Source: a virus (lineage: Duplodnaviria; Caudoviricetes). From it: DNA of 64,000 nt. The translations under genes and the position numbers were made by a program. The notes beneath the pieces were generated by a model. It was not told where the DNA came from. It saw only the letters and a list, made by a program, of their open reading frames with translations, and did not search any database. Every line of letters starts with the position of its first letter. Position 1 is the first letter of the stretch. Location: positions 1,964 through 65,963 of the IMG/VR virus record IMGVR_UViG_2902767014_000002, one strand, 5' to 3'. This document shows, piece by piece, positions 3,764 through 13,305 of this stretch.

Positions 3764-4831
3764 TTAGGCTGTCAGGTCGATTGCTTCGCGCGATGCGCGG
3801 ATGAACTCGGCTGCCGCTTCCGCGTTGATCGCGTTACCGTAGGCGCGCAGTCGTCCCACTCGGGCGGGAGCCCCATCAACCAGCGGGAATGTGCCGGGTT
3901 CAACTGGCCGCCACTTTCCGTCCCGGCAGAGCAGCCAGTCAGCAGCTCGCCAGAAGCCGTTAGTCGGGCCGGCTGCGGCGGCAACTCCGGCAGATCGATC
4001 CCATGCCCCTTGATCGCCCGGCCGCAGAGCGCTTCCGTCTTGCGCGAGAAGTCGTTGTTCCCCGCCATGTTGTTTCCGTTCTGCGCTGGCGTTCCGGCCA
4101 TCGGCGTCGGCCAGCCGGCCAATGTCGCCGCCATGCCCAGCGTCATCCCGAAGCCGTTGTTGCCGTGACGAGCTGCGCACTCCGCTCGCCGCGCTTCCCA
4201 TGTCGAATCGTTGTCGTTCTGCGGCCCCGCGTTCGGCGTCGGCCACGATGCGAGCCACGCCACTCGACCGAGCAGCGCGTTCAGCGGCACGTTCGCGCAC
4301 TCGCTGCCGTCCTTGTGATCGCGTGTTGTTGGCGTGGGCCATGAAGTACGCGCGGTCGCGGATGTGCGGAGCACCGACGCCCGCAGACGGGAACGGGACA
4401 CACCCGAGTGCGTAACCCATCGCTTCCAGGTCAGCTTGAACAAGGTCGATCCAAGGGTCGATGTCCTTGCTCGCAACCTGTTCTCCAAAGATGACTGCAG
4501 GGCGGCGCTCGCCGACGAGCCATGCCCAAGCGGGCCAAAGGTGCCGCTCGTCAGCAAACCCAACTCCTTTGCCTGCCGCGCTGAAAGGTTGGCACGGACA
4601 GGAACCGGTCCAAACAGGTCGATCGTCAGGCCATCCGGCGAGTCGAAGCGCGTACGACCAGACACCGATTCCGGCGAAGAAATGGCACTGCGTGTAGCCT
4701 CGCAGGTCATCGGGTCGGACATCCTCAATGCTCCTTTCGTCTACGTCGCCTGCGGCGATATGCCCCTTGGCGATCAGGTTGCGCAGCCACTGCGCGGCGT
4801 ATGGGTCAATCTCGTTGTAGTAAGCGGCCAT
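3764..4831 (-). CDS. DNA cytosine-5 methyltransferase, large (alpha) polypeptide
   Basis: HFFAGIG (motif I), GSCPCQPFS (IV), GEQV (VI), HIRDR (VIII), YGNAI (X); no motif IX in this frame. Confidence 0.9.
3772..4722 (-). CDS. Nested alternative-frame methyltransferase small (beta) polypeptide with motif IX
   Basis: Open frame over about 950 nt; AAGGAG RBS 8 nt before ATG 4722; [13 protein letters not shown] resembles motif IX; three WPTP repeats. Confidence 0.75.
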
Positions 4832-4848: not shown

Positions 4849-5103
4849 TCAGGAGGGCTTGCGGATCATGACGTGCGAAGATCCGCTTTCGACGTCGGCG
4901 AGTGCGGATTCAAGCCAGCCCTTCACCCATTCATCACCGACGATGCCGCGCAACAGTTGGTAGCTGACAAGCAGACCAGCAGACAGGTAGTCAATCTTTT
5001 CCGCTTCAGTTTTGGTGGCGATCCCGTCGCGCTGAAAGCTCGCCAAAATCATGTCCAGTTGGCGCCGTTCTTCTGCACGCTCTTTGTCATGTGCTGCGCT
5101 CAT
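4849..5103 (-). CDS. Hypothetical protein
   Basis: Short ORF in the operon; start placed at MSAAHDKE. Confidence 0.55.
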   Translation of the reverse strand: MSAAHDKERAEERRQLDMILASFQRDGIATKTEAEKIDYLSAGLLVSYQLLRGIVGDEWVKGWLESALADVESGSSHVMIRKPS

Positions 5104-5123
5104 GCTCGCCTCAATAGAAGTGT

Positions 5124-5768
5124 TTATTCGTGTGTGATGCGCTTTAGCTTGATGACCCAGACCCACGGGTTCGCTTGCCAGTTGGTAGCGGGCGTGGCAA
5201 GGCTGTCCCACAGGCTTTGAAAGCCAGCGCGGAACTTCAGGTGTTCAAGATCCGCGCCGACGATCGACGGCGTTGCGCCTTCGGCGATCGCGTCGTCTTC
5301 GTTGATGTCCTGCAAGCGATCGACGCGCACGCCAGTGACTTCGAGCGTGATGCGCGACGCCCAGCGCGGCATGTGGATGGACGGACGCCATGGCTCGCTG
5401 TCGCGGCCCTGCGTCGCCTGATACTCGACGCGGCGGCAGTACCGCTCATCCGGCACGTAGCGAGCGACGCCGTATTCGAGGGGCGCGCCGGGCGCACTGA
5501 TTTCCACGACGCCGCGCCACGTCTCGCGCACCCACAGACGGTCGCCGGGTTGGCCGTAAGGACAGAACTGCAGCATGTCTCGGATGCACCATTGATCGGC
5601 CGGCAGGATGCCGCGTGCCGGGCGACGCCCCCAATACGCACCGCCGACCCAGCCGGTTTGCTCGACTGGCTGCGGCTTCACGACGCGCCGCGTCTGCGTC
5701 TTGCTGCCGTCGAGCAGAGCGCGCACCATCGGGCCGCTGAAGAGGATCGGACGTTCTTTTATAGTCAT
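5124..5768 (-). CDS. ASCH-like phage protein (ERPILFSGPMVRA...KTQTRR family)
   Basis: Conserved family motifs GDRLWVRETW, WRPSIHMPRWASRI, NPWVWV. Confidence 0.8.
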   Translation of the reverse strand: MTIKERPILFSGPMVRALLDGSKTQTRRVVKPQPVEQTGWVGGAYWGRRPARGILPADQWCIRDMLQFCPYGQPGDRLWVRETWRGVVEISAPGAPLEYGVARYVPDERYCRRVEYQATQGRDSEPWRPSIHMPRWASRITLEVTGVRVDRLQDINEDDAIAEGATPSIVGADLEHLKFRAGFQSLWDSLATPATNWQANPWVWVIKLKRITHE

Positions 5769-5908
5769 TTGCTGCCCCGATAGGTCTTGGTCAAAGCATG
5801 GTTGGCGGCGTGTCCGCGGCGACGCACGGCGTTCGCGAGTTGTGCGCGGTCGTGGTGGCTGCTCGGTGCTTGACCCAGCAGGCCGAAATAGCTGTTTGCG
5901 ACAATCAT
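5765..5908 (-). pseudogene. 47-codon remnant resembling the C-terminus of a DGR reverse transcriptase
   Basis: Hand translation MIVANSYFGLLGQAPSSHHDRAQLANAVRRRGHAANHALTKTYRGSK; ATGA overlaps at both ends; similarity is recalled, not searched. Confidence 0.6.
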
Positions 5909-6357
5909 TTCCACGTTCGCCCAGCGACGATTGCCCAGACGGTTCCTTGGGCCAGCCCGAATTCGCGCGCGAGTGCCAGTGACCCGTCCGTTCGGCTGTA
6001 AGGCTTGAAGCGACTCCGAATCTTCGCGACAATTTCAGGCGTTGCCTTGGTATTGGCCGGCTTATTTCCGACGGCGCGCCGAGCGCGACCCTTGCTGATC
6101 ATGTCGCGTATGTTGTCAAGGCGCGACCCTAGGCTCAGATGCGCTGGATTGATGCACTTCCGGTTGTCGCAGGAGTGCATTACGTCTTGCTTTTCCATGA
6201 TCGGCGCGTTGTGCAGCTCGAACGACACCCGATGCGCGAGCCGATTCTTGCCTTCGTGCCAGACTAGACCGTAGCCGGCCTTGCAGATGTGGCCAGTGAA
6301 TTCGAGGCATTCGCCGCTCCTCGCAGTGCGGCGCATCAGGTTGTCGATCGTTGCCAT
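5905..6357 (-). CDS. HNH homing endonuclease
   Basis: AHRVSF...HSCDNRKCINPAHL...DN HNH motif. Confidence 0.9.
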   Translation of the reverse strand: MATIDNLMRRTARSGECLEFTGHICKAGYGLVWHEGKNRLAHRVSFELHNAPIMEKQDVMHSCDNRKCINPAHLSLGSRLDNIRDMISKGRARRAVGNKPANTKATPEIVAKIRSRFKPYSRTDGSLALAREFGLAQGTVWAIVAGRTWK

Positions 6358-6359
6358 GC

Positions 6360-6833
6360 TTAAACCTCGGCGCGAGAAGGAATAAATCTGCGGACGGCGC
6401 GGGCGCGGAACTCGTAGTGCTGGGGGGTGTAGTACTGATGGCCGTCGCGGAAGTGCTGACACCAGGCCCAGCCGGACTCCGATTCATGCGCCTCGGCCGA
6501 CCAGTACGCGCGCTCTTCGAACTCGCTTTTCAGGTTCGCGAAGAGCAGTGATTGCTCGCGGCGTGTCGGGAGTTCGCCACCCTGCTCGGCGGCCCATTCC
6601 TTCGCAGCCGACCACGAGACGTCGTCGACGTCGCCCGGCAAAAGAATCAGGTGATGCGACAGTTCGCCGTTTTCGTCGAGCACGATCCCGGCGTAGCGCT
6701 CACCCGGTGCGAGCGGAATCGTCACGGCCGGGATGTGGAGTTCCGTTGCGCGCGTTGGCTGCTTCCTGAACTCATCGATCAGTTTGTTGATTCGGGACTG
6801 TTCGGCCTCGATGGCCTCAAGCGTGATGGTCAT
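6360..6833 (-). CDS. DUF1566 (C-type lectin-like fold) protein, DGR target 2
   Basis: W..A..WA...GGELPTRRE...YWS...AW...F..G...RARAVRR. Confidence 0.85.
   Translation of the reverse strand: MTITLEAIEAEQSRINKLIDEFRKQPTRATELHIPAVTIPLAPGERYAGIVLDENGELSHHLILLPGDVDDVSWSAAKEWAAEQGGELPTRREQSLLFANLKSEFEERAYWSAEAHESESGWAWCQHFRDGHQYYTPQHYEFRARAVRRFIPSRAEV
6385..6476 (-). repeat. DGR variable repeat VR-a (92 nt)
   Basis: 74/92 identical to 6874-6965; all mismatches at codon positions 1 and 2. Confidence 0.85.
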
Positions 6834-6863
6834 TGCGATGCTCCGTTGTGAATGGGCAAATGA

Positions 6864-7229
6864 TTAAATCGACAATCTGCGGACGGCGCGGGCGCGGAAC
6901 TCGCCGCCCTGGCGGTCGTAGCCCTGACTGCCGAAGTCGAAGCACTGAAACCAGGCCCAGCCGGAATAACCGGGGTCGCTGTCGGGCGTGTTCGACCAGT
7001 AGGCGTCCTTCTGGAACTGGTCGCGGTGCTGCTCGAACGCGATCACGAGCTCGGCGCGCGTCGGCAGGTCGCCGCCGATGCTTTTTGCCCAATCCATCTG
7101 GGCCTGCCACGACGCGTCGTCGTTGTCGCCGGGCAGGAGGATGGTGTGTGTGACATCGCCGTTCGCATCGACGAAGCCACCGAGGTAGATTTCGCCATCG
7201 GCCAGCGGGGGAATCTGAATTTGTTGCAT
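6864..7229 (-). CDS. DUF1566 protein, DGR target 1
   Basis: GGAG RBS before ATG 7229; GGDLPTRAE...YWS...AW...RARAVRR. Confidence 0.85.
   Translation of the reverse strand: MQQIQIPPLADGEIYLGGFVDANGDVTHTILLPGDNDDASWQAQMDWAKSIGGDLPTRAELVIAFEQHRDQFQKDAYWSNTPDSDPGYSGWAWFQCFDFGSQGYDRQGGEFRARAVRRLSI
6874..6965 (-). repeat. DGR variable repeat VR-b (92 nt)
   Basis: Paired with 6385-6476. Confidence 0.85.
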
Positions 7230-7391
7230 GGTTTCTCCGGGGAAAAAGGACCGGCCCATACAGGCGCCGGCCAACACACACATGCGGAGATCGCAGCGTG
7301 TTTCTTTGATGGGACGCACCACTACGCCACTCGCGCAAGAGATTCGCGCCGTGAAGGCTTCATCTTGCGTGGCGAGCGGTGCGTGGAGGGT

Positions 7392-8045
7392 TCAGGCGGC
7401 TTGCTGGCGGAGCATTTGTTCGAAAGCGGTCACACGTCTTTCGAATGCGACAAGCATCTCGACCATTTCGTCAATGAAGTTGTCGTCACGATAGATGCGC
7501 TTGTAGAACAGATCCTTGCCGACCGGCTCAAGCGCTGGCACGTACTGGATGAAATCGATCCACTTCCGTCCTGTAATCCAAAGTCCGCCCTGTAACTGGC
7601 ATTCGTACTCTGAGATATCGTGCGTCGTGAGCATGTCCATGATTTTCACGCTATCGACCGGACACTTGATCTCGATCAGGCCGTCATCACCCACCAGGCC
7701 ATCAGACGAATACCCGAACTTGCGGTCGTCTGTCAGGATCACACCCGATTCACTGGCCAGGTTGCCGGTGCGGGCCTCATAGCCCATCCTCGCGAACCCT
7801 TCCATTTCATGTCCGCGGTCAAGCGTCCATGCTTTGACAGGTTCACCGTAGGGTTTGCCGCTTACGCGCTCAATCGCAATGTCCAGTGCGTATTTGTCGG
7901 ATGCGCCCGTCGGGTCGCCCGGATTCTTGTTGCCGGATTTCCGTTGCAGCACGGAAATGGCATCAGCAAAGCATGATGCGGTGATAGCGCCGCAGCGGGA
8001 TTCCAACCAGAGGGGCGTGCCCTGTTTGCAATTTACGACAATCAT
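7392..8045 (-). CDS. YqaJ/lambda-exonuclease-like recombinase
   Basis: WLESRCG.ITAS, RGHEME, SSDGLVG...IEIKCP, Q.QGGLW motifs. Confidence 0.9.
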   Translation of the reverse strand: MIVVNCKQGTPLWLESRCGAITASCFADAISVLQRKSGNKNPGDPTGASDKYALDIAIERVSGKPYGEPVKAWTLDRGHEMEGFARMGYEARTGNLASESGVILTDDRKFGYSSDGLVGDDGLIEIKCPVDSVKIMDMLTTHDISEYECQLQGGLWITGRKWIDFIQYVPALEPVGKDLFYKRIYRDDNFIDEMVEMLVAFERRVTAFEQMLRQQAA

Positions 8046-8947
8046 TCCTGTGCCCCCTGTTCCGCTGCCATCTGGCGTTGAAAATCGGCTTTGAGTTCGG
8101 CGTCATCGGAACCGTGTTGACGCTCTGCCGTTTGCGCTGTCTGAGCCTTGAGAACTGGTCCACGCGCCTCAACTGCCGCCTTGAACGAGTTCGACGCGGA
8201 CACGTCCTTGGCGGCGTTGATCTCACGGACACCCTCTTTCCATACCTTCGCGAGTTCGTCGGCAGTCTTGGCGGCGTTTGCTGCCGTTACCCACTTCAGG
8301 GCAAGCGCACTCAACACCGGCTCACCCGGCTCATCGTGAGCTCGCAACTCTTCCGGCACATCTTCGATGTCCTGCGTGAAGATGTCCGACGCGCCAGTCA
8401 CATTCAGAGTCATGGCGATCTTCGCGCGCTTGCATGCCATTTTCAGGATGGTGTTCGCCTGATCGGCCGACTCGGTGCGGATCTGCTGTTGCTTCTCGAC
8501 CTTGTTTTGCCACTTGGAGAATTTCAGGCGACGCAGGTTTTCCGGCGTCACTTCGAATTCCTCTGCGCAGATCGCGCGTCGCCACTTGTACTTTTCCTCG
8601 TGTGATGAACATTCGCCGAGCCCTTCGCCCAGCACGACACCGGTCACTTGGTGAACTCCGATGCAACGAACCCGGTAGCGGGCCATGCCGTCGACCGTCA
8701 GGTCTTCTATCTCGTACTTGTCGGCGATCCGGAAAGTGACGCATAGTACCTCCGCGCCCGGCTTGTACAGCGACGGCTTCTTAGTGCCTGGGATGACGCC
8801 GTAGTGCGTGTCGCTCTTCATGATCGAGCGCATTACCTCCTGCACCAAATTCACGCGCTGTCGGATCTCGACGGCGGAAAACTGATGCACCTCGCTCGAT
8901 ACGATGCCGGCCGTCTCTCGTCGCGGCATTTCGATTATTTCGTTCAC
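8042..8947 (-). CDS. Putative single-strand annealing/recombination protein
   Basis: Coupled to the YqaJ gene; HYGVIPG.KKPSLYKPGAE motif; function inferred from position. Confidence 0.55.
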   Translation of the reverse strand: MNEIIEMPRRETAGIVSSEVHQFSAVEIRQRVNLVQEVMRSIMKSDTHYGVIPGTKKPSLYKPGAEVLCVTFRIADKYEIEDLTVDGMARYRVRCIGVHQVTGVVLGEGLGECSSHEEKYKWRRAICAEEFEVTPENLRRLKFSKWQNKVEKQQQIRTESADQANTILKMACKRAKIAMTLNVTGASDIFTQDIEDVPEELRAHDEPGEPVLSALALKWVTAANAAKTADELAKVWKEGVREINAAKDVSASNSFKAAVEARGPVLKAQTAQTAERQHGSDDAELKADFQRQMAAEQGAQE

Positions 8948-12663: not shown

Positions 12664-13305
12664 TCAGGCAGCATCCTTTTCTTCGAATTGCACTTCGACC
12701 CAAAATCCGGTCATCAGATTGGCGGGTTTAGTCTTCGCGATAACTCGCCCATAGACAGACCATTTGGGTAGGCGCAAACGAAGTGCAGCGAAAACGCCAT
12801 AATTCTCGCCAGCCTCGATGCCCCGGCCAGCCTCGATGCCCTCGCCAGCCTCGATGCCCCCGCCAGCCTCGATGCCCCCGCCAGCCTCGATGCCCCCGCC
12901 AGCCTCGATGCCCCCGCCAGCCTCGATGCCCCCGCCAGCCTCGATGCCCCGGCCAGCCTCGATGCCCCCGCCAGCCTCGATGCCCCCGCCAGCCTCGATG
13001 CCCCCGCCAGCCTCGATGCCCCCGCCAGCCCGCAACGAAAATTCGATGGTGATCGAGCCAGAAACGCGGATCGATCCGGCAAACACGAAGTGCCTCTTCT
13101 CCAGCCTCTCCACGTCGAGAACGTCATCGGTTTTCCCGAATGCGTTCAGCAGCCAGTACGCGTCATCGAATCGATCGTCATCGCATAGTGCGTCGAGAAT
13201 TTCCTGATACTCTCCGCCTTCTGGAAAATTTCTCAAATACCATTCATAGCCCTCCGCACACGGATGCTTTTCTTTCAGAAATTCCTTCGTGATTTTCATA
13301 TTCAC
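12664..13305 (-). CDS. Hexapeptide (AGGGIE)x12 repeat protein, predicted beta-helix
   Basis: Translation; repeat tract in frame. Confidence 0.75.
   Translation of the reverse strand: MNMKITKEFLKEKHPCAEGYEWYLRNFPEGGEYQEILDALCDDDRFDDAYWLLNAFGKTDDVLDVERLEKRHFVFAGSIRVSGSITIEFSLRAGGGIEAGGGIEAGGGIEAGGGIEAGRGIEAGGGIEAGGGIEAGGGIEAGGGIEAGGGIEAGEGIEAGRGIEAGENYGVFAALRLRLPKWSVYGRVIAKTKPANLMTGFWVEVQFEEKDAA
12809..13030. repeat. 18-bp tandem repeat CCAGCCTCGATGCCCCCG, about 12.3 copies
   Basis: Read directly from the sequence. Confidence 0.97.

Follow-up and report, generated by a model that had tools for sequence, protein, structure and literature searches.

In the early region of a prophage, two tandem paralogous genes, here named A and B, end in closely similar 3' sequences, and the differences between these ends are of the kind left by a diversity-generating retroelement (DGR). 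The question raised by this locus is whether such a retroelement wrote the ends of both genes and whether it can still do so. The analysis covered a stretch of DNA of 64,000 nucleotides (hereafter, the window), the genome to which it belongs, and related loci in other genomes and phages.

Organization of the prophage and position of the locus

The prophage is myovirus-like: the plus strand carries, between 33 and 56 kb, the genes for terminase, portal, capsid, sheath, tape measure, baseplate and tail-fibre proteins. Genes A and B belong to a leftward early operon on the minus strand, about 48 kb from the tail-fibre gene. A YqaJ exonuclease gene precedes B, and two early genes without names are located on the same side; on the other side, gene A is followed by an HNH endonuclease gene, a stub of a reverse transcriptase (RT) gene, a gene that is conserved but of unknown function, and a C5 methylase gene. 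The coordinates of the features are listed in Table 1.

Table 1. Features of the locus in the window and the template repeat (TR) found in related loci; VR, variable region.
Feature	Position	Strand	Description
Gene A	6360–6833	minus	157 aa; ORF; paralogue of B, C-type-lectin-fold DGR target
Gene B	6864–7229	minus	121 aa; ORF; stand-alone C-type-lectin-fold (Lcl_C/DUF1566-like) DGR target
VR_A	6386–6476	minus	3' end of gene A; 91 nt; fit to the L070/L071 TR
VR_B	6875–6965	minus	3' end of gene B; 91 nt; fit to the L070/L071 TR
AT-rich spacer after VR_B	6834–6874	minus	conserved with intact relatives (post-VR comparison)
Replacement segment	5904–6375	minus	0.47 kb; new A tail and HNH ORF; nucleotide comparison to L071
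HNH_3 endonuclease gene	5905–6357	minus	150 aa; Pfam HNH_3 and PHROG
RT C-terminal stub	5765–5908	minus	47-codon ORF; matches the end of the vB_PL1/Magia DGR RT
Terminator-like GC hairpin and U-run	7241–7272	minus	between the YqaJ exonuclease gene and B
TR	L070/L071 6996–7086		same sequence in both loci

A terminator-like hairpin was found ahead of gene B. Folding of the minus strand of 7225–7400 gave z = -4.0, with the hairpin followed by UUUUU, and the record of the Burkholderia phage Magia annotates a terminator at the same place, upstream of its B homologue. The hairpin suggests that B and A would be reached by read-through or antiterminated early transcription. A scan of positions 5000–8200 found no promoters. 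Two further ORFs of the same strand drew attention. The ORF of the C5 cytosine methylase (3764–4831, minus strand) is almost fully overlapped by a second long frame of the same strand (3772–4728). In addition, the ORF at 12664–13305 (minus strand) contains 12.4 copies of an 18-nt tandem repeat (12807–13030) encoding (GGGIEA)n hexapeptide repeats, and no PHROG match was found for this ORF.

Proteins encoded by genes A and B

The AlphaFold 2 models of both proteins are confident, with a pLDDT of 86 (A) and 93 (B). Protein A consists of an N-terminal helix (residues 5–24) followed by a C-type-lectin fold, and protein B is the bare domain, without this additional helix. The best PDB match of both proteins was 8q4e, the C-terminal domain of the Legionella protein Lcl (E 3.3e-4 for A; TM 0.72/0.67 for B), and many C-type lectin-like domains were found among the subsequent matches of both. 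The preliminary description of this DNA, made from the sequence alone, had named A and B DUF1566 genes. The fold and the homologues agree with this name, but the Pfam scores do not reach the family threshold: the matches to PF07603 (Lcl_C/DUF1566; E 1e-5 for A and 3.3e-5 for B) scored 26.2 and 24.6 bits, under the gathering score of 34.9, and the assignment to this family is therefore based on fold and homologues. A search of a large protein collection gave 1602 clusters of gene A homologues, many of which are named DUF1566 by NCBI; protein A of the window itself forms a one-member cluster.

Both proteins combine a lectin fold with a VR at the C-terminus (about the last 30 codons), as DGR targets do. 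Note that the last 8 codons of gene A, according to the comparison of tails, are part of the HNH cassette described below and not of the ancestral gene. Both genes are intact and presumably still functional. By inspection, no signal peptide, hydrophobic signal or lipobox was found at the N-terminus of A or B. According to the gene map and the N-termini, the preliminary description was right to place the genes in the early operon, away from the tail module, and to give the proteins no signal peptide. A binding role of A and B inside the cell, in anti-defence or host takeover, was proposed there as well and is a reasonable guess from the position of the genes and the absent export signals. The proteins may also be associated with the virion or released at lysis.

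Signature of variable regions at the ends of A and B

The 3' blocks of the two genes (6385–6476 and 6874–6965, 92 nt each) align without gaps and are 80% identical; a repeat search revealed no other long direct repeat in that part of the window. All 18 mismatches fall at codon position 1 or 2 and are spread over 10 codons, and none of the 30 third positions differs. Upstream of the block, A and B share only 46% of amino acids across 84 aligned codons, and nucleotide differences at codon positions 1, 2 and 3 number 35, 26 and 46, respectively, so that the third position differs in 55% of codons. At this upstream rate, the chance of finding no third-position difference in 30 codons is about 0.45^30. 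Since the window has 58% G+C, codon bias alone does not explain the pattern. The reversed codon-position pattern of the block is real, and chance falls far short of explaining it. Both the gapless blocks with their 18 mismatches and the strong divergence upstream had been read from the sequence in the preliminary description, and the recomputation confirmed them.

Within the large protein collection, the relatives closest to gene A (84–86% identical) come from a Paraburkholderia isolate (locus L070) and from two metagenome contigs (L071, L072). The gene order is B-A-bAvd-TR-RT in L070 and L071, and L072 shows B-A-bAvd; bAvd (PF22296) was found in all three loci. The preliminary description had predicted a single template for both VRs and proposed to look for it in the host genome and in related prophages. 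An adenine-rich match was found in L070 and L071, beside bAvd and RT, and a comparison by eye showed that this TR equals the predicted template codon for codon, with the ambiguous letters resolved as W=T, W=T, M=C and M=C.

The VRs of the window were then fitted to this TR, which is taken from the genomes of these relatives and not from the window's own genome. All 11 mismatches of VR_A (p = 9e-8) and all 15 mismatches of VR_B (p = 6e-11) were located at TR adenines; of the 26 mismatches in total, none affects the 66 non-A sites. The differences between A and B behave in the same way, with 18 of 18 on adenines of the relatives' TR (hypergeometric p = 3e-13). The TR contains one diagnostic AAT codon, which became CAT in VR_A and AGT in VR_B, and this explains T as the third base of that codon in both VRs. 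In 20 intact loci of the family, with 39 VRs, 438 mismatches coincided with TR adenines and 24 were located at other positions, a split which indicates that the DGRs of this family behave canonically.

At its 3' end, the VR of a DGR is expected to carry an IMH, distinct from the IMH* of the TR, with a structure downstream of it. The homology between VR and TR stops at ...CGCAGAT after a GC-rich run, and the next base is T in the VRs and C in the TRs. The AT-rich spacer that follows VR_B has its equivalent after VR_A, where it is cut by the HNH cassette 11–14 nt beyond the VR. A GC hairpin 3' of the VRs was not recognised in a search that was not rigorous, and the 3' sequence of VR_A has been replaced by the cassette. 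Judged by comparison with the template of the relatives, both blocks are true VRs of a DGR, and a single TR served to write them.

Search for the retroelement core

The genome that carries the prophage is represented by a single assembly, a draft of 7.44 Mb in 71 contigs with a completeness of 99.94%. Neither the repeat search in the window nor a genome-wide DNA search using the VR as a query revealed a third copy of the block or a TR; the latter search gave just the two VRs. PF00078 (RVT_1) had no match in the whole genome, and the control genomes were positive. The RT of the Burkholderia phage vB_PL1 used as a query against the genome matched only with its last 45–64 residues, at positions 5780–5974 of the window, and no match was found in the genome for the Avd protein of the same phage. 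Apart from the stub, the searches for the core (RVT_1, RT and Avd) gave one weak unrelated match. Because the assembly consists of 71 contigs, the absence of the core holds to the extent of a 99.94%-complete draft. Thus, the DGR does not exist here as the working system implied in the preliminary description, as TR, Avd and an intact RT are missing from both the window and the genome. With an HNH gene in place of the core, nothing in this genome would be able to diversify the VRs now.

The HNH cassette and the RT stub

Nucleotide homology between the window and the intact locus L071 covers positions 7230–6376 (88%) and 5903–5303 (89%) of the window. The part of L071 that is absent from the window (6456–8047, 1.59 kb) comprises the tail of gene A, bAvd, the TR and RT residues 1 to about 406. 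The replacement begins at the end of VR_A and finishes at approximately residue 287–291 of the RT in the numbering of vB_PL1. The HNH protein was attributed to HNH_3 (PF13392) with 34.5 bits, above the cut-off of 24.8, and its ORF matches PHROG HNH endonuclease families (best E 2.6e-27). It is probably a free-standing homing-type endonuclease. The stub matches the last 45–64 residues of the DGR RT of vB_PL1 and Magia (E 7e-10) and is 87% identical in amino acids to the RT C-terminus of L070/L071. Its ATG overlaps the stop codon of the HNH gene (ATGA), and its own stop codon overlaps the ATG of the next gene.

A simple deletion was considered as the origin of this arrangement and rejected. The HNH gene of Magia lies several genes downstream of the RT and is dissimilar to that of the window (no match at 1e-5), and the HNH gene of the window sits before the RT stub, not after it.

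Close HNH homologues (63–85%) are also located between gene A and an RT stub, except in B. ubonensis (L073), where the stub is missing. They form about 20 clusters versus 1,602 for the gene A family. An RT stub of 45–57 codons that is an intact ORF with its own start and abuts or overlaps the HNH stop was observed in the window and in the loci L060, L061, L062, L063 and L075. The stub may be translated, or coupling to the downstream gene may require it.

Distribution of intact and decapitated loci

A survey of 213 species genomes of the same genus revealed the A/B pair in 23 of them, in most cases with Avd-TR-RT adjoining; the intact order B-A-Avd-TR-RT is also present in the phages Magia and vB_PL1. 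The HNH gene and the RT stub without a TR, that is, a decapitated locus, were found in the window's genome, in Paraburkholderia acidisoli (G013, with two copies of this layout), in P. caballeronis (G073), in the genomes G020, G008 and G024 and, in decayed form, in G171. The HNH layout without a TR is also present in B. ubonensis (L073, stub lost) and B. multivorans (L075). It recurs in at least eight Burkholderia/Paraburkholderia prophage lineages, and the stub is mostly kept. The right junction is constant in the stub-keeping decapitated loci examined, where the HNH stop codon abuts a stub beginning with Met-x-ANSYFGLL, at approximately RT residue 287–291. The left junction of the cassette is located at the end of VR_A or just beyond it.

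The relationships of the cassette and of its surroundings do not coincide. A, B and the stub of the window are nearest to those of the intact locus L071 (87, 92 and 87% aa identity, respectively). The nearest HNH proteins are found in B. ubonensis (85%) and G020 (78%), two loci in which A and B are less similar to those of the window; the A and B of G020 belong to another VR scaffold class. As the flanking genes of the window are nearest to intact DGR loci, these relationships suggest a mobile, homing-like HNH cassette. Among the compared loci, no pair with near-identical flanks across the HNH/DGR difference was found.

Two observations bear on the age of the loss. The HNH genes of the decapitated loci are only 42–85% identical to each other, which would mean an old loss if the cassette were vertically inherited. 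The paralogous VR scaffolds inside each decapitated genome are identical or differ at one site, and those of the window are pristine, with no non-A change and no third-position difference, so that either the loss is recent or the VRs are still being homogenised. A single ancient, vertically inherited loss is disfavoured by these pristine scaffolds and by the proximity of A, B and the stub to intact loci. Repeated and recent entry of the HNH cassette into DGR loci that were still live would fit these comparisons better.

Some other remnants and targets were noted in the compared genomes. In P. caballeronis, an RT gene with a frameshift that is not accompanied by Avd, TR or targets (L067, G073:C3:2806469–2807408) and a second RT stub beside a C5 methylase gene (L068, G073:C3:2707914–2708048) were found. 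Many relatives (L022, L023, L056, L057; gene 57 in Magia) have a third VR-bearing lectin target 5–9 kb upstream of A/B; none was found in the window's genome.

Origin and present state of the variable regions

Taken together, it is highly probable (about 0.87 in our estimate) that the VRs of A and B were written by a DGR, that the core of this DGR has since been replaced by the HNH cassette, and that the VRs are now fixed alleles. The RT would have copied the TR RNA while misreading adenines, and the cDNA would have replaced each VR, leaving NNC/NNT codons that differ at positions 1 and 2. Later, the HNH cassette, possibly arriving by homing-like recombination, would have replaced Avd, the TR and about 85% of the RT, of which approximately the last 45 codons survive. 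In the absence of the TR and RT, both VRs would be static alleles. The A and B proteins would act inside the cell. The VRs are probably frozen relics.

The alternative that survives best, but is still unlikely, is that the orphan VRs are rewritten in trans by the Avd-TR-RT of a co-infecting or co-resident related phage; the locus would then be a DGR user without a core and not a fossil. Such rewriting would agree with VR scaffolds that equal an extant TR at 66 of 66 non-A sites, with paralogue scaffolds that are near-identical inside every decapitated genome and with the conserved post-VR spacer retained by VR_B, and DGRs are known to serve remote targets, as in the case of Magia gene 57 (PMC7883833). 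It would also agree with the locus of B. multivorans (L075:4045–4998), which has no Avd-TR-RT and contains tandem copies of gene A, one of them with a B-type tail. No difference between these copies was found in their first 370 nt or in the upstream spacer, and 16 positions of the VR differ; since the duplicates are identical and yet different in the VR, writing there was either very recent or in trans. However, an intact RT was not found elsewhere in any of five other decapitated genomes (G073, G020, G013, G008 and G024), and six genomes without an intact RT, the window's included, argue against routine rewriting by co-resident prophages. The cassette has also replaced the 3' sequence of VR_A, and fresh rewriting would erase the sharing of codons between the VR_B of the window and that of P. 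caballeronis.

This sharing comprises 6 of 11 non-template codons and is the highest among 300 pair comparisons of VRs, the next best pairs sharing 4 and 3 such codons. In VR_B and its tail, 0 of 26 possible synonymous differences were found between the window and P. caballeronis, in comparison with 34% in the rest of gene B and 46% in the HNH gene. The five codons that differ do so at former adenine positions in all cases. The shared codons may reflect descent from one frozen allele together with selection at binding residues, a short recent conversion tract, or convergent selection.

That the strain does possess the core and that it was missed, as an unassembled repeat, on a plasmid or in a contig gap, is very improbable. 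The assembly is a draft in 71 contigs, and DGR repeats can break assemblies, but a single 76.6-kb contig spans B, A, HNH, the stub and the downstream genes without interruption, and completeness is 99.94%. The RT family, RT protein and Avd searches were all negative, with the RT family control matching known genomes, and the RT that is present at the locus is truncated, which testifies directly to the loss.

An origin without any retroelement, by diversifying selection on binding-site codons, with the remainder of the block kept uniform by gene conversion, has a negligible probability: lectin-fold binding residues can be under positive selection and the five codons that differ between the VR_B of the window and of P. 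caballeronis are all at variable positions, but every variable nucleotide is an adenine of the TR that lies beside Avd/RT in the closest relatives (p = 3e-13), the variable codons keep the third base of the TR, the AAT codon (CAT, AGT) included, and a truncated RT is located 450 nt away.

The preferred reading, DGR-written VRs whose core was replaced by the cassette, can be extended, tentatively, to the other decapitated loci. It is possible, though less likely than not, that a selfish homing-type HNH gene specific for DGR loci repeatedly deletes Avd-TR-RT, in different DGR lineages, between the very conserved VR_A end and 3' end of the RT gene and each time freezes the lectin alleles then present, and that VRs keeping their 3' recognition sequence, such as VR_B, might remain rewritable by the cores of co-infecting relatives.

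Comparison with known systems

The same gene pair followed by a gene for an Avd-like four-helix-bundle protein and an RT gene was found in the Burkholderia phages Magia (MT701587), vB_PL1 and vB_E192a, and an adenine-rich third copy of the block is located between Avd and RT (L009/L010, 5001–5091). The DGR of Magia comprises genes 44–47 and 57 (PMC7883833). Its A and B homologues are about 70–73% identical in amino acids to those of the window, belong to the same VR scaffold family and are likewise located in the early region, between the recombination genes and the integrase end. In contrast to the window, which has the HNH gene and the RT stub instead, Magia keeps Avd, the TR, the full RT and a remote third target. 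The genome announcement of Magia names only genes 47 and 57 as targets (PMC7883833). For gene 46, the A homologue (L009:5625–6089), the annotation is hypothetical, and a VR matching the TR of Magia was found in it, with changes mostly at TR adenines and a few non-adenine differences. The phages with accession numbers OP650936 (Hujiaoplasma phage zrk29-1) and OK094664 (Shewanella phage vB_Sb_QDWS) are both exactly 47,902 bp long and carry a Burkholderia-type B-A-Avd-TR-RT locus with about 73% nucleotide identity to the window; they may be the same phage, with a doubtful host attribution.

The type system of DGRs is that of Bordetella phage BPP-1 (mtd VR, avd, TR and brt), with adenine-specific mutagenesis from TR to VR and a VR at the C-terminus of a C-type-lectin fold. 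Like the family of the window, it has an AAC/AAT-rich template and a GC-rich VR end where the homology between VR and TR stops. Mtd of BPP-1 is a tail-fibre receptor-binding protein encoded in the structural module, whereas the targets in the window are lone lectin domains of 121 and 157 aa encoded in the early operon. In addition, BPP-1 has the DGR core, which the locus of the window does not. Surveys of viral DGRs found that their targets are mostly tail proteins (PMC8144416). Category 'd' of DGR targets (DUF1566/DUF823/Fib_succ_major; Legionella LdtA) was described by Wu et al. 2018 (PMC5758913). Like A and B, these targets are short, contain only a DUF1566-like domain and show weak DUF1566 motif matches over the VR (PMC5758913). 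LdtA is a surface lipoprotein, whereas A and B are encoded by phage early genes and have no signal peptide or lipobox.

With regard to the HNH gene, phages are known to carry free-standing HNH homing endonuclease genes, for example, those of the mob/seg type in T4. Another phage example is provided by the HNH genes of lactococcal Skunavirus (PMC12724721). Such genes resemble the HNH gene of the window in being compact ORF-only cassettes between conserved genes, with a fixed junction across lineages and a phylogeny that apparently does not follow that of the flanking genes. The cassette of the window, a candidate homing gene, replaces 1.6 kb of a retroelement instead of being simply inserted.

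The intact form of the locus is already known from the GenBank annotation and the announcement of Magia (PMC7883833). A literature search on HNH replacement of DGR cores or on orphan VRs found nothing specific, and the decapitated locus, like its repeated occurrence with a constant HNH/RT junction, appears to be undescribed.

Significance of the decapitated locus

This locus demonstrates that two paralogous VRs alone are sufficient to read the signature of a DGR reliably, as the template derived from them was recovered from relatives. It also shows how DGRs die: a small HNH gene supplants the core at a fixed junction in several lineages and leaves the lectin genes intact. Since the lectin genes are intact after the loss of the core, their proteins seem to be worth keeping without further diversification. 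The family includes more than 1,600 protein clusters, and its targets, unlike tail fibres, are tiny lectins of the early operon without signal sequences. Live and frozen loci that occur as natural pairs offer a ready system in which to ask what these lectins bind.
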